The notes beneath the pieces were generated by a model that saw only the letters and a program-made list of their open reading frames with translations, did no database searches and was not told the origin of the DNA. Positions 16,057 to 63,020 of a stretch of DNA of 64,000 bases are shown piece by piece. The position numbers and the translations under genes were made by a program. The stretch lies in NCBI GenBank assembly GCA_035699805.1, contig DASSPF010000147.1, positions 143-64,142 of the forward strand, given 5' to 3'. Source of the DNA: Candidatus Limnocylindria bacterium. Lineage in GTDB: Bacteria > Chloroflexota > Limnocylindria > P2-11E. Each line of letters starts with the position of its first letter. Position 1 is the stretch's first letter.

Positions 16057-16074
16057 GGCCCTCCGTCCCTGATG

Positions 16075-17470: not shown

Positions 17471-17502
17471 ACCCGCCTCGCGCTACTCCGCCCCGTCCTG
17501 CC

Positions 17503-19058
<1,556 letters not shown>

Positions 19059-19062
<4 letters not shown>

Positions 19063-37113: not shown

Positions 37114-37958
37114 GAGAGCTCGCTCACGTCCATACCCAGGAGGACATTGTCGATGAGGCGCGCCGGACCCACACGCGCCGCGAGCGAGAGGACGGCGCGC
37201 TCAGCGGGCCGCTCCAGCTCGGCGAGAGTGAGCGGGTCGGCGGCTGAGGCGTACTCGAGCGCGACCTGAGGACCGGACGCCGTCTCGCGCATCGCGGCGC
37301 GCAGGCGCTCGGGATCGCGCACTCCGCTGTCCCAGAGCGCGCGCGCCGCCGCGAGAGCGCGTGACAGGGCCAGCGCGTCGCGGCGCTGGCCGGCGTCGAG
37401 GTAGGCGTTGCGCGAGGACATCGCAAGACCGTCCGGGTCGCGGACGATCGGGCAGCCCACGATGCGCGGACCGAGGTGGAGGTCGCGCGCCACGGTCTGC
37501 AGCACGCGCAGCTGCTGGAAGTCCTTCTGGCCGAAGTACGCGACGTCGGGGGTCGTGATCGCGAGCAGCTTGGTGACCACGGTGGCGACGCCGATGAAGT
37601 GCCCGGGGCGCGCTGCACCCTCCAGCGGCGCCGCGATGGGGCCGGGATGCACCCGCGCCGCGTCACCCGGCGGGTACATCTCCTCCGCGGTCGGGACGAA
37701 GACCGCGGCGCAGCCGCTCCGCTCGAGCATGTCGAGGTCGGCCGCCTCGCGCCGCGGGTACGCGGCGAAGTCCTCGTGCGGCGCGAACTGGGTCGGGTTC
37801 ACGAAGATCGTGGCGACGGCATGGTCGTTCTCCTGGACCGCGCGCGCGACGAGCGACAGATGGCCGGCGTGCAGCGCTCCCATCGTCGGCACCAGGCCGA
37901 CCGTGCCACCGGCGCGGCGCCAGGCGCGCATCTCGGCGACGGTGCGCGCGACCTTCAC
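37110..37958 (-). CDS. panC: Pantoate--beta-alanine ligase (pantothenate synthetase).
   Basis: 'GLVPTMGALHAGHLSLV' HIGH-type motif and 'FGQKDFQQ' are PanC signatures. Confidence 0.9.
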   Translation of the reverse strand: MKVARTVAEMRAWRRAGGTVGLVPTMGALHAGHLSLVARAVQENDHAVATIFVNPTQFAPHEDFAAYPRREAADLDMLERSGCAAVFVPTAEEMYPPGDAARVHPGPIAAPLEGAARPGHFIGVATVVTKLLAITTPDVAYFGQKDFQQLRVLQTVARDLHLGPRIVGCPIVRDPDGLAMSSRNAYLDAGQRRDALALSRALAAARALWDSGVRDPERLRAAMRETASGPQVALEYASAADPLTLAELERPAERAVLSLAARVGPARLIDNVLLGMDVSELS

Positions 37959-39748
37959 CGCGGGTGCGTGGCCAGGTACGACGGGATCGTCGCGATCGGT
38001 GGGCGTTCGACGGTGGCGATGTCGTGCAGCTCCAGGTGGAGCCGGCCGCCCTGTGTGGTGATGAGCTTCAACGTCGAGTTGGCCTCCTCCACCAGACGCT
38101 CGCCGTGTGCCTCGCCGACGCGGCGCAGACCCACCTGCAGGATCTGGAACGCCATTCTGGAGAGTCCGAGCAGATCCTGGTTCCGGTGGATGCGCTGCTT
38201 CATGTCCACCTGGGCGATGGCGTCCAGCCCGGCGCGCTGGAGCGTGTCGATGAGCAGGCCGGTCTCGACGCCGTAGTTGTTGAAGAACGGCAGGCGCTCG
38301 AGCAGCGACCGGCGGCCGCCCTGCTCCCCCGAAAGCGGCTGCATGAGACCCGAGAGCTCGGGGAAGAAGAGGTTGAGGATCGGCCGCGCCACCAGCTCCG
38401 TCACGCGCCCGCCGCCGCTCGCCTGGAGCTCACCGGCGACGCGCAGCGGGCGCTGGTAGAACGCCTTCACGAACTGGATCTCGGGGCGCAGCAGCAGCGG
38501 ACCGAGGATCCCGTACACGAACTTCGGATGCGACTGCGTGACATCGGTGTCGATCCACACCACGAGATCGCCGGTGGTGACGTGCAGGCTCTTCCAGAGC
38601 GCCTCGCCCTTGCCGCGGTACGACCCGCACTCCGGAAGGATCTCGTCGTGGATGAAGACGGGGATCCCTTCGCTCCGCGCGATGTCGCGGGTCGCGTCCT
38701 CCGAACGCGAGTCGATGAGCACGAGCTCGTCGACCAGCGGGACCCGCTCCATGAGCCGCGAGCGCACCGCCTGGATGACCTTGCGGATGGTCGCCGCCTC
38801 GTTCAGCGCCGGCAGCGCGACCGAGATGCGCAGGTTCTGCCGCTCCTTCGATTCCACGAGACGGGCGAGGTTCGCGAACTCGCTCGAGCTGAACGTGTTG
38901 CGCACGAACCAGGCGTCCACGAGGTCGCCGATGGCCCGGCTGCGCTCGGCGCGGTCGGTCGGGAGGACGGTGTGGGGCAGGAACACCGGCGAGACCACCG
39001 GCATGGCGGTCCGGACGATCACCGCGGAGCGGGCCGCGGCCACGATCGCGAGGCCGACCGGGCCCAGCGGATCCTTGGACCCCTCCCGGCCGGTCGCGCC
39101 GAAGACGATCGCGTCGTGCTCGGCGAGCTCCTCGGTGATGATCGCGGCGGGGTCGCCGGTGCGCGTCACGAGGCGCTCGACGCGGTCATCGGTCGCGCGC
39201 TCTCCGAGGAGCTGGTAGAGCGTGGGCGACCGGCGCGCTCCCGGCGTGCGAACGTGGAGCATCGTCACCGTGCCGTCCTGTGCGGCGGCCCAGCCCGTCG
39301 CGATCTTCGCCGCGAGATCGGCGTAGCGGCCGCCGCGCACCGGGACGAGGATGCGACGGACGCGCGAGTGCGCGCCCTTCACCACCGCGAGGTCGCATGG
39401 CGGCGAGCGGAGGATCTGATCCACCGAGGTCCCGAGGTAATCCCAGCCCGGGCGGCGCCAACCGATCACCAGGAGATCGGGCCGCTCGCGCGCGATGAGC
39501 GTGACGATGGCGTCCCAGCCCTGCCGGCCGACGGTGACGTGCGTCCGCGTGGCCGAGCCGGCCGGCACGAGCTGATCGAGCGCGCGTCGCATCCGCTTGG
39601 CCTCCGGCTGCGCCGACGCGAGGAGCTCGCCTTCAGGCACCTCGATCACCGCCGCGAGGAGCAGCTCATCGCCACCCGCGAGCGCGGCGGCGAGCGACGC
39701 GAGCGCTCCCTCGCGCAGCGGGTCGGTGATGACCGCGAGGATCTTCAT
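37955..39748 (-). CDS. gpgS: Fusion of two N-terminal universal-stress-protein (UspA) domains with glucosyl-3-phosphoglycerate synthase (GT81, GpgS).
   Basis: Two USP-like modules ('MKILAVITD', 'RILVPVRGG'). The C-terminal half is close to mycobacterial GpgS: 'ALPALNEAATI', 'GKGEALWKSL', 'GGGRVTELVARPIL' and 'GLDAIAQV'. Confidence 0.75.
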   Translation of the reverse strand: MKILAVITDPLREGALASLAAALAGGDELLLAAVIEVPEGELLASAQPEAKRMRRALDQLVPAGSATRTHVTVGRQGWDAIVTLIARERPDLLVIGWRRPGWDYLGTSVDQILRSPPCDLAVVKGAHSRVRRILVPVRGGRYADLAAKIATGWAAAQDGTVTMLHVRTPGARRSPTLYQLLGERATDDRVERLVTRTGDPAAIITEELAEHDAIVFGATGREGSKDPLGPVGLAIVAAARSAVIVRTAMPVVSPVFLPHTVLPTDRAERSRAIGDLVDAWFVRNTFSSSEFANLARLVESKERQNLRISVALPALNEAATIRKVIQAVRSRLMERVPLVDELVLIDSRSEDATRDIARSEGIPVFIHDEILPECGSYRGKGEALWKSLHVTTGDLVVWIDTDVTQSHPKFVYGILGPLLLRPEIQFVKAFYQRPLRVAGELQASGGGRVTELVARPILNLFFPELSGLMQPLSGEQGGRRSLLERLPFFNNYGVETGLLIDTLQRAGLDAIAQVDMKQRIHRNQDLLGLSRMAFQILQVGLRRVGEAHGERLVEEANSTLKLITTQGGRLHLELHDIATVERPPIATIPSYLATHPR

Positions 39749-41100
39749 GCGCGGGCCTCGAGAATGACCGGCAGCACGCGGTCGCGCAGCACCCGCGGCC
39801 AGGCATGCGTCTTCGCCCGCGCGGCGAGCGCTGACCCGGGTGTCCCGAGCGCCCGCAGGAGCGCCGTGGCGATCGTCTCCCCGGTCGCGCGCACGCCCAC
39901 GTATGTCGCGGCGTCGCCGGCCACGGCGCGCAGCGTGGGCAGGTCGGAGCAGACGATCGGCAGGCGGTGCAGCCCGGCCTCGAGCGCCGGGATGCCGAAG
40001 CCCTCGCTCTCGCTCGGCAGGACGAGCGCGTCGGCGAGCGCGTACAGGTCGGCGACGACGCGATAGGAGGGCCGGATGCCGAGGGTCGCGAGGAGGTGCA
40101 CGCCGCCCACCCCGCGAGCCCGGCGCTCCAGCTCGTCCAGGTACGCCGCGTTCGTCCGGTTGTGCGGACCCGGCGAGCCGGTCACCACGAGCATCGCGTT
40201 CCGACCGCGCGCGCGCAGGGCGCCGACCGCGTCGATCGCGGCCTCGATGCGCTTGCGGCGCGTGATGCGGGCGGGCAGGAGCAGCAGCGGGTCGGCGTCA
40301 TGGAGCGCGAGGCGTGCAGCAAGACGCGCGCCGTATGTGGAAAGACCGAGCGCGGCGTCAATGTCGATGCCGTTGGGTACGACGGCGATCCTCCGGGTGG
40401 CGATGCCGGTGAGGGCCGCGAGCTGGCGCTGCCGCTCCTCCGACACGGCGACGTAGCGGACGCCTGCGATCGCGCGCGCGATGAGATCCCATGGCTCCCC
40501 GCGGTGCCGCTGGGACGCGTACTGCGGGTCGCACCACGCGAGATCGTGCGTCCACGCGATGACCCGGCCGGGATGGTCGCTCGCGAGGCGCGCGATCGCC
40601 TCCGCGAGGGCCAGGTTCTTGTGCATCGTGAGCACGTTGTGCACGACGACGCGGTCGGCGCGCGTGATGTGCGGACGGAGCGCGCGCTCGAGGCGCGCGA
40701 CGAGCGCCGCGTGCGATGCCAGGAGCTCGCCGCGCGCGAGCGCGTCGAAGTCCCGCTGGACGGCGGGGTGCCGCGAGTCCACCTCCGGGATGCGTGCGAG
40801 CCGGACGCCCCGTGGCGCGGCGCGACCGCGGCCGGCGACGATCGTCACCGACGCGCCGCTGTCGCGCAGCCCGGCCGCGTGCGCGCCCATCACCTGCTCG
40901 ACGCCACCCAGGATCTGGGGGGTCGTGTAGTGGATGAGGGTGACGCGTGCGTTGGTGGTCAGGCGAGCGATGTTGCCCCCGCGCGCGTCACGCGTCCACG
41001 CGCGCCGGCGACGCGGTCGCCGCCCTGGTGCCGGCGGACGCGGAACGACACCGGCGCGTCGAAGATGCGCAGGTCGCGGACGTCGATCCGCTCGAGCCAT
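39745..41100 (-). CDS. GT4-family (GT-B) glycosyltransferase.
   Basis: 'VTLIHYTTPQILGGVEQV' N-terminal GT4 motif and 'EGFGIPALEA'. The start is uncertain: no canonical start codon lies between the ATG at 41100 and the conserved N-terminus. With the 41100 start, its Arg/Pro-rich leader overlaps the upstream glycoside hydrolase gene by about 140 nt. Confidence 0.7.
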   Translation of the reverse strand: MARADRRPRPAHLRRAGVVPRPPAPGRRPRRRRAWTRDARGGNIARLTTNARVTLIHYTTPQILGGVEQVMGAHAAGLRDSGASVTIVAGRGRAAPRGVRLARIPEVDSRHPAVQRDFDALARGELLASHAALVARLERALRPHITRADRVVVHNVLTMHKNLALAEAIARLASDHPGRVIAWTHDLAWCDPQYASQRHRGEPWDLIARAIAGVRYVAVSEERQRQLAALTGIATRRIAVVPNGIDIDAALGLSTYGARLAARLALHDADPLLLLPARITRRKRIEAAIDAVGALRARGRNAMLVVTGSPGPHNRTNAAYLDELERRARGVGGVHLLATLGIRPSYRVVADLYALADALVLPSESEGFGIPALEAGLHRLPIVCSDLPTLRAVAGDAATYVGVRATGETIATALLRALGTPGSALAARAKTHAWPRVLRDRVLPVILEARA

Positions 41101-43070
41101 GGCGGGAGCGCGGGGTCAAGGAGGAGCCGCTGACTGCCGAGATCGGGCTCGGCACCCAGCAGCGTCCGGAGGCAGTGGAAGATCATCCCGGCCGACCAGG
41201 CCTGCGGGATGCACGAGACCAGGTAGTCCGCGGGCCGCGAGGAGAAGCGCAGATCGCGCTGGAAGCCGCAGAAGAGCTCGGGCAGCCGCGCATAGGGGAA
41301 GCGCCGTCCCGCTTCGACGAGGCCGCTCACGACCTCGTTCGCCTCTTCGCGGAATCCGTAGCGCGCCATCCCGTGCGCCGCGATGGCCGAGTCATGCGGC
41401 CAGACCGACCCGTTGTGGTAGCTCATCGGGTTGTACGTCGGGTACCGGGACGACAGCGTCCGGATGCCCCAGCCGGTGTACATGTCGGGCTCCATCAGCC
41501 GGCGCACCAGGAGCGCGGCGCGCTCGGGCGACGCGATGCGGCACCACAGCGCGTGCGCGGCGTTGCTCGTGACCGCGGGCACCTGTTTCTTCCGGCCATC
41601 CAGCGCCTGGGCGTAGCAGGCCGCTGCCGGCATCCAGAAATCGCGCTCGAAGCGCTGCTGGAGCTCCTTGGCCTCGCCGCGCAGCCGGTCCGCACGCTTG
41701 CCGTCGCCGTCCACGTCGTACAGATCCGCCAGGCCCATCTTCGCCGCGTAGACGTAGGCCTGCACCTCGACGAGCGCGGCCGGCAGCTCGGTCCAGCCGC
41801 CGTCGGGGTCCGAGAGCGACTCGGAAGAGTCCTTCCAGCCCTGACTGCGCAGTGCCGTTCCGCGCGCGCCGTACTCGACATAGCCGTCGCGGTCCGGATC
41901 GCCGTACGGGCCGTCACACCAGGTGAGCGCGCGCTCCGCGGCGGGCAGCAGGTCGCGCCACAGCGTGCGGTCGGCGGTCCACTTCACCGTCTCGGCGAAG
42001 ACGAGCGTGAAGAGCGGCGTCGCATCGACCGACCCGTAGTACGGACGGTGCGGGATCTCCCCCAGACGCGCGAGCTCGCCGCGGCGCAGCTCGTGGAAGA
42101 TCTTCCCGGGCTCCTCCTCGGTGAACTCGTCCACCTTCTGGCCCTGGTAGCGCGCGAGGAGCCGCAGCGTGCCGCGCGCCAGATCTGGATTCCAGCCGAG
42201 CGTCTGGTACGCGGACACCAGGCCGTCGCGGCCGAACGGCACCGCGTACCAGGGGATGCCCGCGGTCGGGTAGGGGCCGCCCTCGTGGAACTCCAGCAGC
42301 GCTCGGAGATCGAGCGCGCTCCGCGCGATGAGTCCGTCGTCGAGCGTCTCCGAGCTCGTCTCGTAGCGCGCGCACGAGCGGAGGAAGCGCCGGTACCTGG
42401 CGTTCAGCGCGTCGAGCGCGTCATCGAACCGCCCCGGGGACGGCGCCTCGCCCGCGCCGTCCTCGCGTGGGATGACCGAGAGCTCGATGGTGAGGACCTG
42501 CTGCGGCGCGAGGTCGCGCTCGATGCGCAGCCGGGCGCCGTCCCTGGCGTCGGGGGTCGGGCGGAGGATGATCTCGCTCGTGCGCCGCACGCCGTCGCGG
42601 CCGATGCGCTCGAAGACGAGACCGTCGGGGCGCTCGTCCATCGTCGCGGCCGCGCCCTCTTCCGTGGTGTCCGTATAGCCCCGGACGGTGAACATGTCGC
42701 GGAACGACGCCTCGAATTCGAGCTCGATCGTCACCTTCACCGGCCTGGGGTTGGCGTTCAGGACGCCGATGCGCTCGCGGAGGCCGTCGGTGAGGAACCG
42801 CGTGCGGCGGATGGACAGCGTCTCGGCGGCGTGGCGCGCAGTCCCGAGCACGGCGCCCTCGGTGTGCATGAGCTGGAATGTCGCGACGTAGTTCTGCTCG
42901 GTGTTCGCCGAGAGCAGGAGCGGCTGCGTGCCGTTCACGCGCATCACGTAGCCGGAGAGGAACTGCGTGTCGTGGTAGTACAGGCCGAGCGCGCTCGAGC
43001 TGCCGAGCGGCAGACTGCCGTCGTCCTCGCTGATGAGGACGAGCTGATCCTCCTTGAGCGAGGAGGTCAC
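40959..43070 (-). CDS. Glycoside hydrolase with a bacterial GDE N-terminal domain and an amylo-alpha-1,6-glucosidase-like (GH63/GH133-type, alpha/alpha-6 barrel) catalytic domain. Candidate glucosyl/mannosyl-glycerate or oligoglucan hydrolase.
   Basis: 'LGLYYHDTQFLSGY' GDE_N-like start. Length and pattern are typical of the family. The GTG start at 43070 overlaps the upstream GT-A gene stop by 4 nt. Confidence 0.6.
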   Translation of the reverse strand: MTSSLKEDQLVLISEDDGSLPLGSSSALGLYYHDTQFLSGYVMRVNGTQPLLLSANTEQNYVATFQLMHTEGAVLGTARHAAETLSIRRTRFLTDGLRERIGVLNANPRPVKVTIELEFEASFRDMFTVRGYTDTTEEGAAATMDERPDGLVFERIGRDGVRRTSEIILRPTPDARDGARLRIERDLAPQQVLTIELSVIPREDGAGEAPSPGRFDDALDALNARYRRFLRSCARYETSSETLDDGLIARSALDLRALLEFHEGGPYPTAGIPWYAVPFGRDGLVSAYQTLGWNPDLARGTLRLLARYQGQKVDEFTEEEPGKIFHELRRGELARLGEIPHRPYYGSVDATPLFTLVFAETVKWTADRTLWRDLLPAAERALTWCDGPYGDPDRDGYVEYGARGTALRSQGWKDSSESLSDPDGGWTELPAALVEVQAYVYAAKMGLADLYDVDGDGKRADRLRGEAKELQQRFERDFWMPAAACYAQALDGRKKQVPAVTSNAAHALWCRIASPERAALLVRRLMEPDMYTGWGIRTLSSRYPTYNPMSYHNGSVWPHDSAIAAHGMARYGFREEANEVVSGLVEAGRRFPYARLPELFCGFQRDLRFSSRPADYLVSCIPQAWSAGMIFHCLRTLLGAEPDLGSQRLLLDPALPPWLERIDVRDLRIFDAPVSFRVRRHQGGDRVAGARGRVTRAGATSLA

Positions 43071-44263
43071 GCCCGGATCTCGTCCTCGCGCACGACGTGA
43101 TCCTCCTTCACCTTCTCCATCGCGAGAGCACCCGCCTCGACGATGTCCTCGGCCTGGGCCGTCGTGAGGTCGTGCGCCTCTTCGATGAACTCGGCGACGC
43201 GCAGGTAGTAGAGCGGAAGGAGCCCCTGCGCGAGACGCTCGCTGTCGTCCGGCCGCCGAATGGCGGCACCGAGGAAGTCGAAGACGATGCGCGCCCAAAC
43301 ATCCGGACCGAGCACCTTCGGGATCGCAGCCGAGAGCACCTCATCCCAGAGCGCGCGCTGGGCGTCCGCGGTCGCCGCGTACTTCTGGCGAAGCCGCGCG
43401 GGATCGGCGTCGATCGCTTCCGGGTCGACCGGCTCGATGTCGCCCACGACCGGGACCGGTTTGGAGCCGGTGACCCGCCGCCACTGCGCCTGGTTCTCTC
43501 GTGCCAGGCGGAAGAGGGTGCCCACGACCTGCGTGAACATCGGGCCGAGGTCGGCCGCGGGGTCTTTGGGGTCGTGGATCTTCGCGCCGAGGAACGCCTG
43601 CGCGACGCGCGCCCTCCGCGAGACCGCGGTGGTGGTCATGAAGATGTCGATGCCGAATCGCGCGACGTCGCTCTCCCAGACGGGCTGGGCGAGGAAGGCG
43701 CGACCGAGATCCGCATGGAAGCCGAATTCGCCGCCGATCGGCTGGCGGATGCGCAGGCCGTACAGCGCGCGCGTGAGCGGATAGGCGATGGAGTTGGTGA
43801 TGGTCCCATCGTGCTTGTGCCGCGCGTAGAGCGGCGTGACGTAGTCGGCCTCGGCGCGCACGACCGGGCCGAGCAGCCGGCCGATCCACTGCGGCGTGAT
43901 GCTCCGCAGGTCGGAGTCCACCACCGCGCACGCGCGTGCGTCCAGCAGCGCCGCGGCCTGGAAGATCGCGCGGAACGCGGACCCCTTGCCCGGCGGGCCG
44001 ACGTACCGGCCGACGGCCACCGGGATGTCGGTCGCGGCCGCGGCGACCGCCTCGGGAGTCCCATCCTCGGAGCCGCCGTCGGCATTCACCAGCGCGACGC
44101 GGGCGTCCGGGAAGTGCTGACGCAGGCCGCGGGCGACGGTCGCGGCCACGTGGCCGATCGTCCCGGCGTTGCGGAAGCTCGGTATCCCGACGAGCAGGTC
44201 AGCCCTCTCGATCCTGGCGATGCCTTCCCGCAGACGGTCGTCGAGCGCGCTCTGATCGGGCAT
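43067..44263 (-). CDS. GT-A-fold glycosyltransferase (family not assigned), first gene of the glycoside/panC operon.
   Basis: 'LLVGIPSFRNAGTIGHV...ALVNADGGSEDGT...AVVDSDL' matches a GT-A nucleotide-sugar-binding and DxD-like region. ATG at 44263 preceded by a GGAGGA Shine-Dalgarno. Real gene at the C-terminal end of a 1460-aa artefactual ORF. Confidence 0.6.
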   Translation of the reverse strand: MPDQSALDDRLREGIARIERADLLVGIPSFRNAGTIGHVAATVARGLRQHFPDARVALVNADGGSEDGTPEAVAAAATDIPVAVGRYVGPPGKGSAFRAIFQAAALLDARACAVVDSDLRSITPQWIGRLLGPVVRAEADYVTPLYARHKHDGTITNSIAYPLTRALYGLRIRQPIGGEFGFHADLGRAFLAQPVWESDVARFGIDIFMTTTAVSRRARVAQAFLGAKIHDPKDPAADLGPMFTQVVGTLFRLARENQAQWRRVTGSKPVPVVGDIEPVDPEAIDADPARLRQKYAATADAQRALWDEVLSAAIPKVLGPDVWARIVFDFLGAAIRRPDDSERLAQGLLPLYYLRVAEFIEEAHDLTTAQAEDIVEAGALAMEKVKEDHVVREDEIRA

Positions 44264-44314
44264 GCGTCCTCCTTCTGAAGATGCCCTGCCCGCCCCTCGG
44301 CCATCATACGGAAT

Positions 44315-44947
44315 GTGCTCGAAGCCATAGACGCCATCGTCATCCCGTTCATCGACGCCCTGTACTCGCGTTTCGGCTACGTCGGGGTGGCCATCGCCAT
44401 GACCATCGAGAGCGCGGCGATCCCACTTCCCTCCGAGCTCATCCTGCCGTTCGCCGGTTGGAGCGTGTCGCGTGGCCTGATGGAGCCGCTCACCGGCAGC
44501 CAGTGGACGTACTGGGGCGCGGTGATCGCCGGTGTCGTGGGGAACACCGCCGGCTCGCTCCTCTCCTATGCGGTCGGGGCATACGGCGGACGGCCGCTCG
44601 TCGAGCGCTACGGCAAGTACGTCCTCATCAGCGCGCACGACATCGAGCTCGCGGAGCGCTGGTTCGCGCGCTATGGCGAGGCGACGGTCTTCTTCTCGCG
44701 GATGCTCCCGATCGTCCGCACGTTCATCTCCGTGCCCGCGGGCGTCGCGCGCATGCCGCTCTGGCGCTTCACGCTCTTCTCGGTGCTCGGCGCGGTCCCC
44801 TGGGTGATGCTGCTCGTCTGGGGCGGCATGGTCCTCGGTGACCACTGGCTGGAACTGAAGCACTCGCTGAAGGGCCTCGACTACCTCGTCGCGGCGGTGA
44901 TCGTCGCCGGAGTGGGGATCTTCGTCTGGCGCCACGTGAAGCGTTAG
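44315..44947 (+). CDS. DedA-family (TVP38/SNARE-associated) membrane protein.
   Basis: 'GYVGVAIAMTIESAAIPLPSE' and 'FFSRMLPIVRTFISVPAGVARMP' are DedA core motifs. About 4 TM helices. Confidence 0.8.
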   Translation: MLEAIDAIVIPFIDALYSRFGYVGVAIAMTIESAAIPLPSELILPFAGWSVSRGLMEPLTGSQWTYWGAVIAGVVGNTAGSLLSYAVGAYGGRPLVERYGKYVLISAHDIELAERWFARYGEATVFFSRMLPIVRTFISVPAGVARMPLWRFTLFSVLGAVPWVMLLVWGGMVLGDHWLELKHSLKGLDYLVAAVIVAGVGIFVWRHVKR

Positions 44948-44950
44948 CGG

Positions 44951-47926
44951 GTGGAGGCCCTCGCCGCGCTCGACCGCCAGCTCTACCACGCGATCGTCAC
45001 CGCCACATCGCAATCGCCGCTCCTCGCGACGTTCGTCCTGCTCATCGCCTGGGCGAACTGGAACGGCCTGGTGTGGTGGCTCGCGGGTCTGCTCGCCAGC
45101 CGTGCCCGCGGCTTCCGGCGGCGCGGGACGTGGGCGCTCCTCACCGTGTACACGGCGATGGTCGATGGCTGGGTCGTCACCGAGCTCCTGAAGCTCGTCG
45201 TGCGCAGGCCGCGTCCGTTCACCGAGATCGTCGACGCTCCCGCCACGCTCATCGACCATCCGCTCACCTTCTCGTTCCCATCGGGCGACGCCACGTTCGC
45301 GGTGGGCGCGGCGTTCGGCGTCGCGGCGGTCGCGCCGCGCTGGCGCTGGCCGGCGTTCCTCTTCGCCGTCGCGGTGATGTTCGAGCGCGTCGCGGTCGGC
45401 GTGCACTATCCCTCCGACGTGCTCGCCGGCGCGCTGGTGGGCATCGCGTCGGGTCTGCTCGCGCCGCGCGCCGTCGCGCTCGTGCGGCGGCGCGCCCGCT
45501 GGCGCGTGTTCGTGGTGCCGCACACGCATTGGGATCGCGAGTGGTACGAGCGCTTCGAAGGCTATCGCGCGCGCCTGGTGCCGATGGTGAGCAAGCTCCT
45601 GGCCCTGCTCGAGCGCGACGCGTCGTTCCGCTCGTTCACGTTCGACGGCCAGACGATCGCGATCGAGGATCATCTCGAGAAGCGGCCGGCCGATCGGGAG
45701 CGCGTCGAAGCACTGGTGCGCGCCGAGCGGCTCTTCGTCGGCCCGTGGTACGTGCTCGCCGACAACCTGCTCGTCTCCGGCGAGTCGCTCGTCCGCAATT
45801 TCCAGGAGGGGCTCCGGGTCGCGCAGTCGTTCGGGCGGGCGCTGCGCGTCGGCTACGTCGCCGACCCGTTCGGCCATCCCGCGCAGGTGCCGCAGTTGCT
45901 TCGCGGGTTCGGGTATTCCACGTACGTGTTCTCGCGCGGCGTCGGTGACGAGGGCGAGGGGCTGGGGTCGGAGTTCTTCTGGGAGGCGCCGTCGGGCGAC
46001 CGCGTCCTCGCCTCGCATCTGGTGGACCACTACGCCGGCGGCCTGGCGCTCGTGGGCGAGATGTCCGAGACCGAGGACGCGCTCCGGCGGCGTGTCCGGC
46101 GCCGCCTGGGGCGGATGCTCGATGTGCCGGCGCGCTATGCGAACAGCGACATCCTCCTCTTCATGGAGGGTGACGACCACGTGGAGGCGTACGAGCGGCT
46201 GCCCGAGGCGGTCGCGGCGATGCGCGCGGTCGCGCCGAACCTCGACGCCCGCATCGCGAGCCTCGAGGAGTACGCGGAAGCCCTGCCGCCTCCTCCGACC
46301 GAGCACCTGGGCGAGATCACGAGCGGCCGGTACCGGCCGATCCTGCGGGGCGTGAACTCGACGCGCGTCTGGATCAAGCAGGAGAACGCGTCGTGCGAGC
46401 GCCTGCTGCTCGAGCGCTGCGAGCCGCTCGACGCGCTCACCGGCGGCGGCGCCGGGGAAGAGCTGCGGTCGCTCTGGCGGACGCTGCTCCAGAACCACCC
46501 GCACGACTCGATCTGCGGCTGCTCGATCGACGCGGTGCACGACCTCGACATGGCGCCGCGCTTCGCGCGCGTGCGCGCCGACGGTGAAGCGCTCGCCCTC
46601 GCGCTCGAACGGCGCCTGGCCGGCGAGGGGGCGCCGATGGTGTGGAACGACCTTCCCTGGCCGCGCGTGGCGATCGTCGAGCTCGACGGCGTGCCGACGG
46701 CGGTCGCCTCTGCCGGCCTGGGCACGGCCGCCGCGCGGCGAGCCGTCGTGGCTCCGGTGGTGTCGACCGGGGACGGCGTCATCGCCAACGGCGCGCTGCG
46801 GGTGGAGGTCGCAACGGATGGCTCCTTCTTCGTGACCGATCTCGAGGCCGGCGCCCGCACCGGGCCGCACAACGTCCTGGTCGATGACGGCGACCGGGGG
46901 GACCTGTACACCTATTCCTATGCCGGCCCGACGGTCGGCTCGGCCGGCGTGACGGGTACCCGGCACACCGATGTGCGTGGCGACCGCGCGACCGTCACCG
47001 TGGACTACGTGCTCGCGCTGCCCGCCGGGCTGCGTGGCGATCGTCTCGCGCGCTCGCCCGAGACCGTGCCCTGCGCCGTGCGCGCCGTGATCTCGCTCGA
47101 CGCGGGCGCGCGTCGCGTGGACGTCGCGCTCACCGTCGACAACCGCGCGCGCGATCACCGGCTGCGCGTGCTCTGCGAGACCGGGACGCGGTCGCTGACG
47201 CATGTCGCGGGTGCCGCGTTCGCCTGGCTCGATCGGACGACGCGGGTGACCGGTCGGTCCGGATGGATCGAGCGGCCGACCGCCGAGCGGTGCGGGCACG
47301 AGATGGTCGGCCTCGAGGGCGCGCTCATCGTGGGCCTGGACGGCCTGCGCGAGTACGCCGCGCTCCACGACGGGCGCACCATCGCGATCACGCTGGTGCG
47401 CGCCGTGGGGTGGCTCTCGCGGGGCGACCTGCCCGAGCGCAAGGGTCACGCCGGGCCCGCGCTCGAGACGCCGAGCGCGCAGTGCATCGGCGAACGGACG
47501 TACCGCTACTGCGTGGTGCCGCAGTCCGGAGCGACGACCCTCGCGCTCGCCGCGCGCGAGGTCCGCGAGTTCCTGTCACCCGCGCGCGTGGTGCGCGGCG
47601 ATGGCGTGGAGCGCACGTTCGTCGCCATCGACCGCGACTCGCCGCTCCAGCTCTCGGCGCTCCGCTCTGGGCCCGATGGGGCCGTCGTGGTGCGCCTCCA
47701 TGACCCGCGCGGCGAGCCCGCCGAGACCGGGCTCCGTTTCGCGTGGCCGGTGCGGGAGGTGCGCTCGGTCGATCTGCGCGAGGGGGAGACCGGCCTCGGC
47801 AACACCGGGCTCGAGGTCGTCCGGACGGCGGCGCCGCCGGAGATCGTGGACGGCGTGCTCCATGTCCGCCTTGCGCCCTATGAGATCGGGACCTACCTCG
47901 TCACGCTCGGTCCCACGAACGTGTGA
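44951..47926 (+). CDS. Membrane PAP2-superfamily phosphatase domain fused to a GH38 alpha-mannosidase (MngB-like).
   Basis: PAP2 motifs 'KLVVRRPRP', 'PSGDATFA' and 'GVHYPSDVLAG' within TM helices (residues 1-200). GH38 then begins 'VVPHTHWDREWYERFE...GPWYVLADNLLVSGESLVRNF'. The GTG start sits 3 nt after the DedA stop. Confidence 0.7.
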   Translation: MEALAALDRQLYHAIVTATSQSPLLATFVLLIAWANWNGLVWWLAGLLASRARGFRRRGTWALLTVYTAMVDGWVVTELLKLVVRRPRPFTEIVDAPATLIDHPLTFSFPSGDATFAVGAAFGVAAVAPRWRWPAFLFAVAVMFERVAVGVHYPSDVLAGALVGIASGLLAPRAVALVRRRARWRVFVVPHTHWDREWYERFEGYRARLVPMVSKLLALLERDASFRSFTFDGQTIAIEDHLEKRPADRERVEALVRAERLFVGPWYVLADNLLVSGESLVRNFQEGLRVAQSFGRALRVGYVADPFGHPAQVPQLLRGFGYSTYVFSRGVGDEGEGLGSEFFWEAPSGDRVLASHLVDHYAGGLALVGEMSETEDALRRRVRRRLGRMLDVPARYANSDILLFMEGDDHVEAYERLPEAVAAMRAVAPNLDARIASLEEYAEALPPPPTEHLGEITSGRYRPILRGVNSTRVWIKQENASCERLLLERCEPLDALTGGGAGEELRSLWRTLLQNHPHDSICGCSIDAVHDLDMAPRFARVRADGEALALALERRLAGEGAPMVWNDLPWPRVAIVELDGVPTAVASAGLGTAAARRAVVAPVVSTGDGVIANGALRVEVATDGSFFVTDLEAGARTGPHNVLVDDGDRGDLYTYSYAGPTVGSAGVTGTRHTDVRGDRATVTVDYVLALPAGLRGDRLARSPETVPCAVRAVISLDAGARRVDVALTVDNRARDHRLRVLCETGTRSLTHVAGAAFAWLDRTTRVTGRSGWIERPTAERCGHEMVGLEGALIVGLDGLREYAALHDGRTIAITLVRAVGWLSRGDLPERKGHAGPALETPSAQCIGERTYRYCVVPQSGATTLALAAREVREFLSPARVVRGDGVERTFVAIDRDSPLQLSALRSGPDGAVVVRLHDPRGEPAETGLRFAWPVREVRSVDLREGETGLGNTGLEVVRTAAPPEIVDGVLHVRLAPYEIGTYLVTLGPTNV

Positions 47927-47995
47927 CGGCCCGTCGCACGAACGTGCGACGCGCGTGGGACAGACACGACCCCGCTCCCTCCATACGCTTCCGCG

Positions 47996-48523
47996 GTGCG
48001 TCCGCTCGCGCTGCTCTTCGCCGTGGCGCTGCTGCTGGTCGCCGGCGCGGGGCCGGCGAGCGCTGACGACGGCGATCTCGCGTTCCGGCGTACCACGCCG
48101 CGCGCGGTGCTCGGCGGGGCGCCCCATGCCGTGGTCATCGGTATCCCGGGCGGCCGTGCGTGGGGGATCGAGAGCGAGCTGCGGCCGCTGCCGCCGTCGG
48201 GCACCGTGCTCGTGGTGCGCCTGGCGGTGACCGATGACGCGGTCCGCGAGGCCTTCGTCCGGGTCGCCTACTACGGCGCCGCGTCGGGCAGGTCGCGGCA
48301 GCTCGCGATCGCCGACAGCGCACCCGTCGAGGCGGGCGTTCGGTCGCTCGTCGCGGTGGAGATCGATCCGCCCCCGGGGGCGGTCGCGTACCGCGTCCGG
48401 GTGCTGGCCCGCCTGGTCCGCCCTCAGGACCGCTCTGCCCCCGATGCGGTCGGCGCCGTCTTCCGGCAGGGATCGGGCGGCTCGCCCCGGCCCGGCTCGC
48501 TCTATTCGCGGCTACTTCCCTAA
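47996..48523 (+). CDS. Secreted hypothetical protein.
   Basis: Signal peptide 'LALLFAVALLLVAGAGPASA'. No recognisable domain. Confidence 0.4.
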   Translation: MRPLALLFAVALLLVAGAGPASADDGDLAFRRTTPRAVLGGAPHAVVIGIPGGRAWGIESELRPLPPSGTVLVVRLAVTDDAVREAFVRVAYYGAASGRSRQLAIADSAPVEAGVRSLVAVEIDPPPGAVAYRVRVLARLVRPQDRSAPDAVGAVFRQGSGGSPRPGSLYSRLLP

Positions 48524-48533
48524 ACTGCGCCGG

Positions 48534-49622
48534 ATGGCAACCGTGACGTTCGACCACGTCACCAAGAAGTTCGGTGACGTGGTGGCGGTCAACGACCTCT
48601 CGCTCCAGGTGCGCGACGAGGAGTTCCTCGTGCTCGTGGGCCCCTCCGGGTGCGGGAAGACGACCGCGCTCCGGATGCTGGCGGGCCTCGAAGAGCAGAC
48701 CTCGGGCGACATCTTCATCGGGGAGCGCCGGGTGAACGACGTCGCGCCCAAGGACCGCGACATCGCGATGGTGTTCCAGAACTACGCGCTCTATCCGCAC
48801 ATGAGCGTGTACGACAACATCGCCTTCGGCCTGAAGCTCCGCGGCATGCCGAAGCAGGAGATCGACCGTCGGGTGAACGAGGTCGCCGAGATGCTCGCCA
48901 TCGCGCAGCTGCTCAAGCGCAAGCCGAAGGAGCTCTCCGGCGGACAGCGGCAGCGCGTCGCCGTGGGTCGCGCCATCGCGCGCGAGCCGGCCGTGTTCCT
49001 CATGGACGAGCCGCTCTCGAACCTCGACGCGAAGCTGCGCATCCAGACCCGCGCGATGCTCCAGAAGCTGCATCAGCGCATCCGCCGCACCACGATCTAT
49101 GTCACGCACGACCAGGTGGAAGCGATGACGATGGGCGATCGCATCGCGGTCATGAGCGACGGCGTACTCCAGCAGCTCGACACGCCGGAGAATCTGCACG
49201 AGCGGCCGGTGAACGTGTTCGTGGCGGGCTTCATCGGCTCGCCATCGATGAACTTCTTCCCGGGCAAGCTCGTGGCGAAGGACGGCGGGGTCGTCGCCGA
49301 CTCCGGCTTCTTCCAGGCGCCGGTCCGCGGCAAGGCCGCCGAGGCGGCGGGCCGCGACGTCATCCTCGGCATCCGCCCCGAGGACATCCACGATCTCGCG
49401 TACGCGCAGGCAGGCCGCGACCTGCTGGCGGTCGAGTCGAAGGTGGAGGTCCTCGAGTTCCTCGGCAACGAGCTGCAGCTCGAGCTTTCCTCTGGCGGAC
49501 AGAGCTACATCGCGCGCGTCTCGACCGAGACGCACACCAAGCCGGGCGCGACGCTGCGCGCGGGCTTCGACCTTCGCAAGCTCCATGTCTTCGACAAGGA
49601 GACCGAGGTGGCCCTGCGATGA
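48534..49622 (+). CDS. Carbohydrate ABC-transporter ATP-binding protein, solo MsiK/MalK/UgpC-type.
   Basis: Walker A 'GPSGCGKTT', signature 'LSGGQRQRVAVGRAI', Walker B 'FLMDEPLSNLD', plus a C-terminal MalK-like regulatory domain. No permease or solute-binding-protein genes are adjacent. Confidence 0.85.
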   Translation: MATVTFDHVTKKFGDVVAVNDLSLQVRDEEFLVLVGPSGCGKTTALRMLAGLEEQTSGDIFIGERRVNDVAPKDRDIAMVFQNYALYPHMSVYDNIAFGLKLRGMPKQEIDRRVNEVAEMLAIAQLLKRKPKELSGGQRQRVAVGRAIAREPAVFLMDEPLSNLDAKLRIQTRAMLQKLHQRIRRTTIYVTHDQVEAMTMGDRIAVMSDGVLQQLDTPENLHERPVNVFVAGFIGSPSMNFFPGKLVAKDGGVVADSGFFQAPVRGKAAEAAGRDVILGIRPEDIHDLAYAQAGRDLLAVESKVEVLEFLGNELQLELSSGGQSYIARVSTETHTKPGATLRAGFDLRKLHVFDKETEVALR

Positions 49623-51387
49623 CGCTCAAGGGCAACACGCAGGACTTTCCGCTCGACGTCGTCATCCGGCTGCTGGCGGACACGCAGAAGACCGGTGAGC
49701 TGGCGCTGCGCGGTGAGGCCGGTGCGGGTGCGCTCGGGATCGCGAGCGGCCAGGTCGTGACCGCCGTGTATGGCGACGAGGCGCCCATCCCCGCGCTCGG
49801 CGCGATCTTCAGCATGGGCCCCGCCGAGTTCGAGTTCACACCATGGGACCAGGCGCCCGACGCGAACCTGGAAGGCGATCTCCAGGAGAACCTGCGCAAG
49901 GCCGAGGAGCATCGTCAGTGGCTCGCGAGCGTGCGCGAGGTCATCCCCGAGGACCGTGTCCGCTTCCGCCTCTCCGAGCGCGCCGCGGAGCAGGGCGCGG
50001 TCACCTTCACCTCCGATCGCTGGCGGGTGGTGCTCGCGGTGAATGGCGAGCGCGACGTGACCGGCATCGCCGCTCACCTGCGCATCGATCGTGACGCGGC
50101 GCTCGGCCTGCTGGCCGGCCTGGTGCGCGACGGTGTGATCGAGACGGTCGCACCGCCGTCGCCCGAGGAGATGGCGCCGCCCGCGCCGAGCCCTCCGGCA
50201 GAGGCGGAGACGCCGACCGCCTTCGCGCCCGAGCCCCTCGCCGCGCCACCGCCCCAGCCCGAAGCCGAGCCCGCGGCACCGCCGGCGCCCGAACCACCGG
50301 CCTTCGAGAGCCCGGCAGAGCCCCCGAGCCAGACACCGCCGCCCGCGTCCTCGCAGGCCAGCGAATGGGGCGCGCCGATGCCACAGGACTGGGGCCCACC
50401 GCCCTCCCCCGAGCCCGCGCCAGCGGAGCCGGTCCCGCCGCCGATGCCGCAAGACTGGGGTCCGCTGCCCGCGGAGTCCGCGCCGGTCGAGCCTCCCGCG
50501 CCACCGATGCCGCAGGAGTGGGGTCCGCCGCCCCCGGCCGAGCCGGAGCCCGCCGTGGACGATCGCTTGGCAGCGCTCTTCGGCTCGCCGGCACCCGCGC
50601 CCTCAGACGCGGCGCCTCCGGCGGTCCCGCCCGGCGACCGGTGGGACGCACCCGCCCCGGCGGCCGACGCCTGGAGCGCACCCGCGGCGGACTGGAGCAC
50701 GCCCGCGCCGGCCGAGGCGCCGGCACCCCCGGCCGACGATCCGCGTCTGGGCGCGCTCTTCTCACCGCCTGCAGCCGAGGCTCCGCCCGCGGATGACCCG
50801 CGCCTGGGGGCGCTCTTCACCCCATCCGCGGCGCCGCCGTCCGAGACGCCCGCGCCACCGGTCGCGCCCGCGAGCGAGTGGGCCCCACCCGCCGAGACGC
50901 CCGCCGCGCCGGCGGCACCGCCGAAGAAGGGCCTCTTCGGACGGTTCAAGCGCGAGGAGACCGCGCCCGAGCCGGCCACGAGCACCACGCTCGTCGATCG
51001 CAGCGCCTCGACCCGCGTCGGTCTGCTCGCGGCGTTCTCCAATGCCCTCCTCACCGAATACAACAGTGGTCACTACGGCAAGGGCCACATCGACGACCGC
51101 ATGCCGGGGCTGCTCATGCGTGTGGACGAGCAGGCCGACCCGATCGACCGGCCGCTGCCGGTGGTGGACGACCGGCTCGACGTCCAGGCGCTCGAGCGCG
51201 TGAGCATCCCCGAGGCGCAGGCCGCCCCATACCTCGCCCTGCTGGTCTCGACCATCTACGCCGACGCGGAGAAGACCTTCGGGCGTGACAAGGCCAAGCG
51301 CGGGTACAAGGCCGCGATGCAGCACGTGTTCGGCGGCGATGCGTCCGCACTCGGCGGGCCGGATCTCGCGGGGAAGCTGCCCAAGGT

Positions 51388-56326: not shown

Positions 56327-57958
56327 GTGTCGAACGATAGCGGAATCCGGCGCGCCATACTTCGCGCGGTGATGATGTCCGTCGCGCGGGCCTCCGTGGT
56401 GATGATCGCGGCGCTCATCGCCAGCCGGGTCCTCGGCTGGCTACGCCTCTCGGTCATCGGGGCGACGTTCGGGGCCACGCCCGACCTCGACGCCTTCTGG
56501 GCGGCCTTCAAGATCCCCAACGCCCTCTTCGAGCTCCTCGTGGCGGGAGCGCTCTCGTCCGCTTTCATCCCTGTCTTCGCCGGGTACCTCGCGAAGGAGC
56601 GGGAGAAGGAGGCCTGGCGCGTCGCCTCGAGCGTCATGAACGTCCTCATCCTCTCGCTCATGGCCCTGTCGGCGGTCATGTGGCTGGCCGCGCCGTGGCT
56701 GGTCCCGACCGTCGTCGCGCCGGGCTTCGTGAAGGATCCCGAGCAGCTCGACCGCACCGTCGAGCTCACCCGGATCATGCTGCTCAGCCCCATCTTCATG
56801 GGGCTGTCCTCGCTCGTCACGGGCGTGCTCCAGTCGTACCGCCAGTTCCTCGCCGGCGCCGTCGCGCCACTTGTGTACAACGGCGTGCAGATCCTCTTCG
56901 CGCTCTTCGCCGCGCCGTTCGTCGGCATCGACGCGCTCGCGTACGGCGTCGTCGCCGGCGCCGCGATGATGTTCCTCGTCCAGGTCCCGGAGCTCACGTT
57001 CCGGCACACCAAGTACGAGCTGCGGCTCGACCTCGGGCATCCGGGCGTGCGTGAGGTGTTCCTCCTCGCCGGTCCGCGCACGCTCTCGCTCGGCGCGGTG
57101 CAGCTGGTGTTCTTCGTCGACACCTACCTCGCCTCCCAGATGCCGGCCGGTGCGCTCACCGCGCTCAACTACGCGTTCCAGCTGATGCTCCTGCCGCTCG
57201 GCGTGTACTCGATCGCGATCAGCGCCGCGGTGTTCCCGGCGCTCTCGCACTACGCATCGCTCGGCCAGGCCGCGCGGATGCGTGACGCGCTCCAGCAGGC
57301 CATCCGCTGGATCCTGTTCCTCACGCTGCCGACGGCGATCGTCATGGTCGTGCTGCGCCGCCCGATCGTGAACCTGCTGTTCCAGTACGGGGCGTTCGAT
57401 GCCACCGCGCGGGAGCTCACGCAGATGACCTTCCTCTTCTATGCGCTGGGGCTGACCGGGCATGCGCTCATACAGATCCTGGCGCGTGCGTACTACGCGT
57501 CGCGTGACACCACCACGCCTGTCGCGCTGACGCTCGTCTCCATCGGCGTGAACGTGCTGCTCGCAGTCCTGCTCGCGCCACGCATGGGCATCAACGGTCT
57601 GGCGCTCGCCAACTCCATTGCCACGCTCGCCGAGGCCGCGCTGCTCCTGGCGCTCCTCGCGCCGCGTGCCCGCCTGCGCCTGGTCGGGCTGGGCTACAGC
57701 ACGCTCAAACAGGTCACGGCGACGCTCCTCATGGGCGTGGGCATGTTCCTGTTCATCCGCGTCACCAACATCCCACTCGACCTGGCACTCGCGCCGTCCA
57801 AGCCGGTGCTCCTCGTCCAGACGATGCTCGCCACGGCGTTCGGGGTGCTGGTGTACGTGGTGGCCGCGTACCTGCTGCGCATCGGCGAGCTCCAGGAGAT
57901 CGTGTCGTTCCTGCGCGCGCGGCTGCGCCGCGCACCGGCGGAGCCCGGTCGGGCCTAG
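56327..57958 (+). CDS. murJ: Lipid II flippase MurJ (MviN family).
   Basis: 14-TM MOP-superfamily pattern, 'TPDLDAFWAAFKIPNALFELLVAGALSSAFIPVF'. The true start may be the internal Met at about 56372, since 56327 lies 2 nt from the divergent rpsT start. Confidence 0.85.
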   Translation: MSNDSGIRRAILRAVMMSVARASVVMIAALIASRVLGWLRLSVIGATFGATPDLDAFWAAFKIPNALFELLVAGALSSAFIPVFAGYLAKEREKEAWRVASSVMNVLILSLMALSAVMWLAAPWLVPTVVAPGFVKDPEQLDRTVELTRIMLLSPIFMGLSSLVTGVLQSYRQFLAGAVAPLVYNGVQILFALFAAPFVGIDALAYGVVAGAAMMFLVQVPELTFRHTKYELRLDLGHPGVREVFLLAGPRTLSLGAVQLVFFVDTYLASQMPAGALTALNYAFQLMLLPLGVYSIAISAAVFPALSHYASLGQAARMRDALQQAIRWILFLTLPTAIVMVVLRRPIVNLLFQYGAFDATARELTQMTFLFYALGLTGHALIQILARAYYASRDTTTPVALTLVSIGVNVLLAVLLAPRMGINGLALANSIATLAEAALLLALLAPRARLRLVGLGYSTLKQVTATLLMGVGMFLFIRVTNIPLDLALAPSKPVLLVQTMLATAFGVLVYVVAAYLLRIGELQEIVSFLRARLRRAPAEPGRA

Positions 57959-61202: not shown

Positions 61203-61215
61203 ACGCTTGAGGTCT

Positions 61216-63020
<1,805 letters not shown>

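Follow-up and report, generated by a model that had tools for sequence, protein, structure and literature searches.

A single open reading frame (ORF) in the DNA of a Candidatus Limnocylindria bacterium (Chloroflexota; soil lineage) was found to encode a polytopic membrane phosphatase of the PAP2 family that is covalently joined to a complete alpha-mannosidase of glycoside hydrolase family 38 (GH38). The DNA analysed, a stretch of 64 kb that we call the window, was derived from a metagenome-assembled genome (MAG) and has a base composition of about 71% GC. The fusion is real and is not an assembly artefact. Its architecture is old and stable in one clade and is not widespread across phyla. The fusion gene lies between a DedA gene and orf175, a gene for a small secreted protein, and these three genes are the conserved core of the locus. 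The two catalytic centres of the fusion are predicted, from homology and a structural model, to lie on opposite faces of the membrane. Our tentative reading, to which we give somewhat less than an even chance, is that a cytoplasmic alpha-mannosidase has been fused onto a carrier-lipid recycling module, the whole forming a three-gene envelope module.

The PAP2-GH38 fusion is a real gene

As shown in Table 1, the fusion ORF follows the DedA gene on the same strand. On its 991-amino-acid translation, Pfam placed the PAP2 domain at residues 67–175 (1.2e-19), Glyco_hydro_38N at residues 186–447 (4.2e-36), Alpha-mann_mid at residues 466–549 (3.1e-10) and the GH38 C2 domain at residues 900–982 (2e-4). 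A sequence-only reading of the same stretch had described a DedA gene ending 3 nt before a polytopic PAP2 domain fused to a complete GH38 mannosidase. The spacing was borne out by the ORF coordinates, and the fusion by the Pfam boundaries and by the related loci described below. The two circumstances which that reading had named as grounds for doubt, an artificial fusion and an architecture already widespread and characterised, were both found to be absent, as the ORF is intact in nearly all loci and occurs in one clade.

The junction between PAP2 and GH38 was a single unbroken ORF in 82 of the 85 independent genome or metagenome loci that span it; of the other three, one had an internal stop, one had a frameshift and one lay on a truncated contig. 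PAP2 and GH38 were found on a single chain in 119 of the 120 best database clusters (63–100% identity, full coverage). An identical (100%) protein exists at NCBI, from a Candidatus Limnocylindria bacterium MAG, under the label 'phosphatase PAP2 family protein' only. It was on these three observations that an artefact was rejected. The junction sequence RRRxRWRxFVVPHTHWDREW was nearly invariant among the homologues, and no split (fission) variants of the fusion were found among the 85 loci. GC content at third codon positions (GC3) was 0.91–0.92 in the DedA and fusion ORFs, matching the real genes of the window, and was uniform, about 0.92, along the whole fusion ORF. An assembly, frameshift or gene-calling artefact, which might be suspected from the metagenomic origin of the window and from the frame that the DedA gene and the fusion share here with only TAG and one codon between them, is therefore refuted by the unbroken loci from many projects, the two-domain clusters, the near-invariant junction and the even GC3, and we leave it practically no chance.

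Two metagenome loci carried lesions inside the gene. The fusion had an internal stop at codon 224 in contig L086 and a frameshift in L117, both of which may be sequencing errors or rare pseudogenes.

Distribution of the fusion

An exhaustive HMMER search over 1.84 billion 50%-identity representatives recovered the full-length fusion in only two 50% clusters (61% and 53% identity), plus fragments. All other matches (≤44% identity) were stand-alone GH38 proteins, whose alignments started at query residue ∼183–187 and target residue ∼3–20. In GTDB, searched with one genome per species, the carriers of the fusion were Limnocylindria/Chloroflexota MAGs and one contig with the label Dormibacterota (L032, 52% identity). 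Two further contigs, labelled Candidatus Bathyarchaeia archaeon (L008) and Candidatus Saccharimonadales bacterium (L022), encoded fusions with 60–65% identity; they are probably mis-binned Chloroflexota, because their gene order is exactly that of Limnocylindria. A metagenome scan seeded with the divergent L032 protein returned only Limnocylindria-type loci (48–57% identity) and no more members of the L032 type.

The neighbours of the stand-alone GH38 relatives were heterogeneous (DUF3048/Big_5 proteins, dehydrogenases, amidohydrolases and unannotated ORFs) and gave no lead to a substrate. DedA, PAP2 or GT81 genes were essentially absent near them. Among the papers searched, none dealt with PAP2 and GH38 together in this sense, and no characterised PAP2-GH38 fusion was found, in agreement with the sequence-only reading, which knew of no characterised example.

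The PAP2 domain and its predicted orientation in the membrane

The best PDB match of the PAP2 domain was A. aeolicus LpxE (6EBU, 6.9e-10). Among NCBIfam models it came closest to the undecaprenyl-diphosphatases, all of them under the cut-off (62 bits against 250). The three PAP2 motifs are given in Table 1. The first position of motif C3 was variable (E/A/S), as in LpxE, and R146, H152 and D156 aligned to R137, H143 and D147 of LpxE; H152 is predicted to be the phospho-histidine nucleophile. We infer undecaprenyl pyrophosphate (C55-PP) to be the substrate of the domain.

The canonical His of motif C2 is replaced by Asp, which need not mark an inactive phosphatase, because the active A. aeolicus LpxE has the same substitution. 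According to the LpxE paper, that enzyme carries the C2 His-to-Asp change yet dephosphorylates lipid A 1-phosphate, C55-PP and phosphatidylglycerol phosphate (PGP).

The LpxE paper describes seven helices, of which the amphipathic N-terminal one lies on the periplasmic surface, the second is half-inserted and five are transmembrane, with the N-terminus and the active site both periplasmic. In the AlphaFold model, the PAP2 part of the fusion had helices at residues 2–21, 23–35, 37–52, 57–83, 112–127, 129–148 and 154–181 (pLDDT 80–94), the same seven-helix pattern as LpxE, and the first GH38 strand (184–191) came directly after them. The net loop charge, averaged over 26 homologues, was +9.6 on the GH38 side (+3.0, +1.8 and, for the linker, +4.8) and about +0.3 on the side bearing the PAP2 motifs. 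On the basis of the LpxE homology, the seven-helix model and this positive-inside count, the N-terminus and the PAP2 active site are predicted to be outside and the C-terminus with the GH38 domain to be cytoplasmic. A review gives it as a general rule that the active sites of PAP2 and BacA enzymes lie outside the cytoplasm.

The linker and the GH38 domain

In the 26 homologues, the linker between the last transmembrane helix and the first GH38 beta-strand had a fixed length of 8 residues with no insertions or deletions, and R179, R180 and W184 were invariant. The hydrolase is therefore predicted to be held in one fixed register, near the inner face of the membrane.

The GH38 domain order was complete (Pfam PF01074, PF09261 and PF17677, with PF07748 recorded for many homologues). 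The PDB matches were the GH38 enzymes of E. faecalis (3LVT/5KBP, 4e-76) and S. pyogenes (SpGH38, 2WYH, 1.5e-70); the two stretches aligned to 3LVT and 2WYH span the N- and C-terminal halves of the domain. The identical stretch LLQNHPHDSICGCS is common to the fusion GH38 and the cytosolic bacterial GH38 enzymes. By alignment, the zinc ligands H193, D195, D305 and H518 correspond to H13, D15, D125 and H351 of SpGH38, the nucleophile D305 to D125 and the acid/base D409 to D232, and the sugar-binding residues W198, F307 and D519 to W18, F127 and D352. Since none of these catalytic and sugar-binding residues varied across the family alignment, the domain is expected to work as a retaining exo-alpha-mannosidase. 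Several active-site loops of the GH38 domain had pLDDT < 50 in the AlphaFold model of the fusion.

The closest NCBIfam model for the domain was that of MngB (NF007331), with 364.4 bits against a cut-off of 1138 and a best stretch confined to the N-terminal half; judged by this score, the domain is not an MngB equivalog. Candidate substrates are mannosides linked to the carrier or the envelope, and solutes of the mannosylglycerate type from the adjacent gene cluster.

The DedA gene is coupled to the fusion

The 210-residue ORF upstream contained the Pfam VTT/DedA domain PF09335 (2.7e-23, 83 bits against a cut-off of 33.9). The Bacillus UptA model of NCBIfam, NF052604, was the best-scoring DedA model (3.1e-49, 167.7 bits, under its equivalog cut-off of 250), while the E. 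coli-type DedA model gave 52 bits. The paired arginines of the DedA re-entrant loop are R112/R118 in UptA, and R130 in YqjA and R136 in YghB (PMC11474028). As read from the translation, R129 and R135 in SRMLPIVRTF (SRMLPIVRTFISVPAG) have the same 6-residue spacing as the UptA pair. The best matches among NCBIfam models, both under their cut-offs, agree with the sequence-only reading, which had pointed to the UptA/PopT flippases among DedA proteins and to the undecaprenyl-pyrophosphate phosphatases in the PAP2 superfamily.

DedA was found upstream of the fusion on the same strand in 76 related loci. Its stop codon and the start codon of the fusion overlapped by 4 nt in 26 loci and by 1 nt in 37, that is in 63 of the 76, and the two genes abutted in 9; examples are TGATG in L005 and GTGA in L032. 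These overlaps indicate that the two genes are translationally coupled, and not joined by readthrough. Stop-codon readthrough, or a recent DedA-PAP2-GH38 triple fusion, was ruled out since the genes of the relatives lie in different frames with overlaps of 1 or 4 nt, and the frame shared by the two genes in this genome looks coincidental rather than programmed. One Limnocylindria MAG contig (L004, DATKCP010000228.1) had DedA cut to a ∼45-codon remnant (5790–6010) between the GT81-like gene and the fusion, either by a real deletion or by assembly collapse.

A promoter and terminator scan of positions 43900–49800 gave no sites and no sigma-70-like promoter, a result that is uninformative for this phylum. 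The promoters in the 51-bp region upstream of DedA may overlap, or the transcripts may be leaderless.

The neighbourhood and its conserved core

Gene order was collinear in ∼80 Limnocylindria loci. The minus strand carried MFS, USP-GpgS, GT4, GDE_N_bis/GH63-like and GT81-like genes, and the plus strand DedA, PAP2-GH38, orf175, a MalK/UgpC-type ABC ATPase, DUF4388, ROK, GAPDH and PGK. GAPDH and PGK, 5–10 kb downstream of the fusion, are thus also collinear in Limnocylindria, and because the collinearity reaches these glycolysis genes it is indistinguishable from general class-level synteny. In the divergent locus L032, DedA, the fusion and an orf175 homologue (8931–9542; 39% identity, 2e-12) stay together, whereas the flanks differ: dynamin-like GTPases and GH13 enzymes are found there, and the GT81, GT4 and GH63 neighbours are absent beside the fusion. 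It is because only DedA, PAP2-GH38 and orf175 are kept together in L032 that we take these three genes as the core. The tie to the adjacent glycerate cluster suggested by the sequence-only reading accordingly holds for gene order within Limnocylindria and fails beside the L032 fusion.

orf175 was found downstream of the fusion in 56 of 58 loci. No Pfam or NCBIfam match was obtained for its product, which has 863 database relatives. The AlphaFold model was an all-beta beta-sandwich (pLDDT 80), and Foldseek gave weak matches to MAM, CBM16/22/61 and Emb arabinosyltransferase C-terminal domains (TM-scores 0.35–0.48). A carbohydrate-binding fold is not established by these matches; the protein may bind envelope glycan.

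The organism runs a lipid II/undecaprenyl phosphate (C55-P) cycle that needs recycling of the kind proposed here, as the lipid II flippase gene murJ is present in the window (Table 1).

The divergent cluster on the minus strand had no recognisable GpgP/MpgP-type phosphatase. Its 398-residue glycosyltransferase next to DedA was examined as a membrane polyprenyl-phosphate glycosyltransferase, and this was rejected since the protein, a second and divergent GT81 enzyme of the cluster, is soluble and lacks hydrophobic segments. At the far end of the cluster, a universal stress protein (USP) domain stands at the N-terminus of a bona fide glucosyl-3-phosphoglycerate synthase, a fusion that is conserved across the Limnocylindria loci and may be a stress-regulated step of compatible-solute synthesis.

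No permease or binding-protein genes were found adjacent to the MalK/UgpC/MsiK-type ATPase downstream of orf175. Its longest ORF, from 48234, adds ∼100 N-terminal residues that overlap orf175, and the real start is probably near 48534. Elsewhere in the window, a signalling block (6217–20057) encodes a HAMP histidine kinase, a PAS-GGDEF-EAL-receiver protein, a PAS histidine kinase, a Ser/Thr kinase and a PAS-adenylate/guanylate cyclase, and a cyclase-AAA_16 protein of 1122 aa is encoded at 57960–61328.

Table 1. Coordinates of the fusion, its motifs and the neighbouring genes (positions refer to the window; residue numbers are those of the encoded protein).
Feature	Position	Strand	Remarks
PAP2-GH38 fusion ORF	44951–47926	+	991 aa, GTG start
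PAP2 lipid-phosphatase domain, LpxE/YodM-like	44951–45493	+	aa 1–181; Pfam 1.2e-19
PAP2 motif C1, KX6RP: K81-x6-R88-P89 (KLVVRRPRP)	45191–45217	+	K81, R88 and P89 invariant in 26 homologues
PAP2 motif C2 variant, P110-S111-G112-D113 (PSGD, not PSGH)	45278–45289	+	invariant in 26/26 homologues
PAP2 motif C3, R146-x5-H152-x3-D156 (ERVAVGVHYPSD)	45386–45418	+	R146, H152 and D156 invariant
Linker VRRRARWR, last transmembrane helix to first GH38 beta-strand	45482–45505	+	aa 178–185
GH38 alpha-mannosidase, bacterial cytosolic subfamily, predicted cytoplasmic	45497–47926	+	aa 183–991; 809 residues
DedA-family membrane protein, UptA-like (COG0586 type)	44315–44947	+	210 aa, GTG start, TAG stop at 44945–44947
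Junction of DedA stop and fusion start	44945–44953	+	TAG-CGG-GTG, 3-nt gap
orf175, small secreted protein, signal peptide MRPLALLFAVALLLVAGAGPASA/DDG (ending ...GPASA/DDG)	47996–48523	+	from the translation
Divergent intergenic region, GT81-like (ATG 44263, −) and DedA (GTG 44315, +)	44264–44314		51 bp
Divergent cluster	37955–44263	−	51 bp from DedA
GT81-like enzyme	43067–44263	−	398 aa; matches both GpgS and Rubrobacter MpgS structures
GDE_N_bis + GH63/MGH1-like hydrolase	40959–43298	−	779 aa
GT4, weak match to mannosylglucosylglycerate synthase	39745–41100	−	
USP-GpgS fusion	37955–39748	−	NF010496, 375 bits, above the 262 cut-off
Orphan MalK/UgpC/MsiK-type ABC ATPase	48534–49622	+	∼600 bp downstream of the fusion
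MurJ lipid II flippase	56327–57958	+	Pfam 1.7e-99; directly after enolase, ∼8 kb downstream of the fusion, same conserved block

Proposed function of the three-gene module

In the reading that we favour, the PAP2 domain, acting outside, would convert undecaprenyl pyrophosphate to undecaprenyl phosphate, and DedA would flip C55-P inward. The GH38 domain would be held at the inner membrane surface, tethered to the cytoplasmic C-terminus of PAP2 by the basic 8-residue linker. There it would take alpha-mannose off mannosides that are associated with the membrane or derived from the envelope, for example lipid-linked oligomannoside intermediates or wall fragments brought back into the cell. By analogy with the B. 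subtilis hydrolases UshA and UpsH, every activity of the operon would then top up the pool of carrier lipid or ease the demand on it. Three of the four domains of the conserved core, DedA, PAP2 and the secreted orf175 product, are envelope-facing or carrier-related, and by this association a role of GH38 on envelope mannosides is favoured. That GH38 acts on envelope-related mannosides at the cytoplasmic face is nevertheless a doubtful step, which we rate as possible and no better. With the two sites on opposite sides of the membrane, as predicted, a single substrate molecule would have to be flipped before the second site could reach it.

A more specific version would make the fusion a two-faced enzyme of carrier salvage. 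Its outer site would regenerate undecaprenyl phosphate, its inner GH38 would strip alpha-mannose from lipid-linked mannoside intermediates that are stalled or in surplus at the cytoplasmic leaflet, and the operon with DedA would control how much carrier is free for peptidoglycan synthesis. In this full form the idea is improbable.

Several points weigh against the carrier-recycling reading. Every step of it is a prediction, and the topology comes from homology and the charge rule. DedA and PAP2 both score under the NCBIfam equivalog cut-offs and their substrates could therefore differ; phosphatidylglycerol phosphate is another substrate of enzymes of the LpxE/YodM type. The substrates of all bacterial GH38 enzymes characterised so far are soluble (SpGH38 literature). 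GH38 cleaves alpha-mannosidic bonds, so that it could trim a glycan and would not release the carrier from the first sugar-phosphate, and it could not hydrolyse beta-linked polyprenyl-P-mannose. No genes for lipid-linked mannan or polyprenyl-P-mannose were found in the 64-kb window, the rest of which showed only signalling, coenzyme and glycolysis genes and murJ. The nearest neighbours in Limnocylindria, the GT81, GT4 and GH63-like genes for glycosyl-glycerate-type solutes, favour a soluble substrate. Finally, a fusion can persist without functional coupling.

Alternative explanations

The substrate of GH38 might instead be a compatible solute of the cytoplasm that the divergent cluster produces, namely mannosylglycerate, mannosylglucosylglycerate or a precursor in phosphorylated form. 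The fusion would then be no more than a membrane tether, and PAP2 and DedA would recycle the carrier independently. The domain is predicted to be in the cytoplasm, where such solutes occur, and its bacterial subfamily also includes the 6-phospho-mannosylglycerate hydrolase MngB of E. coli (364 bits against the MngB model). Starting 51 bp upstream of DedA lie the divergent genes for the GT81-like enzyme (GpgS/MpgS-like), the GH63/MGH1-like hydrolase, GT4 and the bona fide USP-GpgS, an arrangement common to about 80 Limnocylindria loci. However, the collinearity extends to ROK, GAPDH and PGK and may be plain class-level synteny; the L032 fusion keeps DedA and orf175 without the GT81, GT4 and GH63 neighbours; and GT81/GpgS genes lay within 6–8 kb of none of about 75 stand-alone GH38 loci. 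The MngB equivalog cut-off is missed widely, and the cluster already has a GH63-like hydrolase of its own. We regard this explanation as unlikely, with a real chance of being right.

It is also conceivable that the two domains are not functionally coupled at all, and that a catabolic alpha-mannosidase of the usual cytoplasmic kind, whose mannosides enter through ABC transporters energised by the MsiK/UgpC-like ATPase, became fused to PAP2 by loss of a stop codon and was tolerated. Every one of the nearest relatives (≤44% identity) is a soluble GH38 protein that stands alone and starts at query residue ∼183–187, a MalK/UgpC-type ATPase gene lies 600 bp downstream, and SpGH38 has been proposed in the literature to degrade imported glycan fragments. 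A tolerated accident is harder to reconcile with a fusion that is intact down to about 52% identity, with the invariant linker length, R179, R180 and W184, and with 85 loci free of fission variants. No permease or binding-protein genes adjoin the ATPase gene, and the heterogeneous contexts of the stand-alone relatives show no transporter pattern. We judge it rather unlikely.

The sequence-only reading had suggested that the fusion could trim and dephosphorylate a polyprenyl- or glycerate-linked mannoside, or that it could be the missing phosphatase or hydrolase of the adjacent glycerate cluster. The neighbouring cluster indeed has no recognisable GpgP/MpgP phosphatase, and fused domains often share one pathway. 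Sequential action of PAP2 and GH38 on the same mannoside does not fit the predicted placement of the two sites, the PAP2 motifs lying opposite GH38 according to the LpxE homology, the positive-inside count and the AlphaFold model with five transmembrane helices, N-terminus out and C-terminus in; the review cited above likewise places PAP2 and BacA sites outside the cytoplasm. A role of PAP2 as the missing glucosyl/mannosyl-3-phosphoglycerate phosphatase meets the same obstacle, since glycosyl-3-phosphoglycerates are soluble, cytoplasmic and out of reach of an outward PAP2 site. Both forms of a shared pathway are very improbable, and what survives of the suggestion is the mannosylglycerate-type hydrolase, already weighed as a solute enzyme.

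Comparison with known systems

The carrier-recycling reading starts from a published pattern. A 2022 preprint (Roney & Rudner 2022) took the adjacency or fusion of DedA and PAP2 as evidence that UptA-type DedA flips undecaprenyl phosphate after PAP2 has dephosphorylated surface undecaprenyl pyrophosphate, and the same point on DedA-PAP2 association was made by Sit et al. 2022. The link to lipid-carrier recycling that the sequence-only reading had proposed is reasonable in view of this pattern. As in the pairs of UptA with BcrC/PgpB-type PAP2, the DedA gene here adjoins a PAP2 phosphatase gene and is translationally coupled to it. Unlike these pairs, it is accompanied by a gene for a secreted beta-sandwich protein, orf175, and the NCBIfam equivalog cut-offs are missed. 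Unlike in the DedA-PAP2 fusions, the partner fused to PAP2 is an 809-residue GH38, predicted to be cytoplasmic, and not DedA.

The PAP2 domain itself resembles A. aeolicus LpxE (6EBU) and B. subtilis YodM/PgpB (5JKI), short membrane PAP2 enzymes that act on C55-PP, PGP and lipid A 1-phosphate, in the motifs KX6RP, PSG-Asp and E/x-R-X5-H-X3-D. With LpxE it shares, in the AlphaFold model, the seven-helix layout with an amphipathic N-terminal helix and five transmembrane helices. LpxE, however, has 180 aa and ends after helix 7, whereas here helix 7 runs into GH38. Chloroflexota are generally regarded as monoderms without lipopolysaccharide, and lipid A is for this reason an unlikely substrate of the PAP2 domain.

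The GH38 part is like SpGH38 (2WYH), E. faecalis GH38 (3LVT/5KBP) and E. coli MngB in domain order, metal ligands, nucleophile, acid/base and the lack of a signal peptide, and like them it would be cytoplasmic. These enzymes are soluble and stand alone, whereas the fusion GH38 is anchored to a polytopic membrane enzyme and has moderate identity to the solved structures.

Hydrolases on the cytoplasmic side of the carrier cycle have been reported in B. subtilis, where UshA (YqjL) and UpsH (YpbG) free undecaprenyl phosphate from undecaprenyl-phosphate sugars or undecaprenyl-pyrophosphate-linked polymers and are co-regulated with uptA and bcrC (Roney & Rudner 2025). Their families, alpha/beta hydrolase and metallophosphoesterase, are unrelated to GH38, and they are coupled to the cycle by a regulon, whereas here the coupling is by fusion. 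Unlike the carrier-releasing UshA and UpsH, GH38 could at most trim a carrier-linked glycan, and the likeness between the two systems is by analogy.

Significance

DedA-PAP2 pairs had been described before, and every domain can be recognised as belonging to its family. What appears to be new is the covalent, clade-wide fusion of a phosphatase predicted to face outward, and to act on the carrier, with a glycoside hydrolase predicted to face inward, together with a conserved, putatively secreted partner.

The sharing and recovery of undecaprenyl phosphate, a carrier in short supply, is under active study in bacteria; its flippases became known only in 2022–23 and the first hydrolases that liberate it in 2025. 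The name under which the protein is now annotated, PAP2 only, conceals a mannosidase of 800 residues and will lead astray attempts to reconstruct metabolism from these genomes. If GH38 does serve the adjacent solute cluster, the fusion would be the first membrane-anchored enzyme of a mannosylglycerate-type pathway. If instead the two-faced form of carrier salvage is true, the fusion would mark the first case of a glycoside hydrolase devoted to homeostasis of the lipid carrier, and would parallel the UshA/UpsH logic in fused form. With a glycoside hydrolase at the predicted cytoplasmic end of a putative carrier phosphatase, and with translational coupling to the flippase gene, the fusion is a 'Rosetta stone' hint that removal of sugars at the inner leaflet may belong to the carrier cycle in the abundant, uncultured Limnocylindria of soil.

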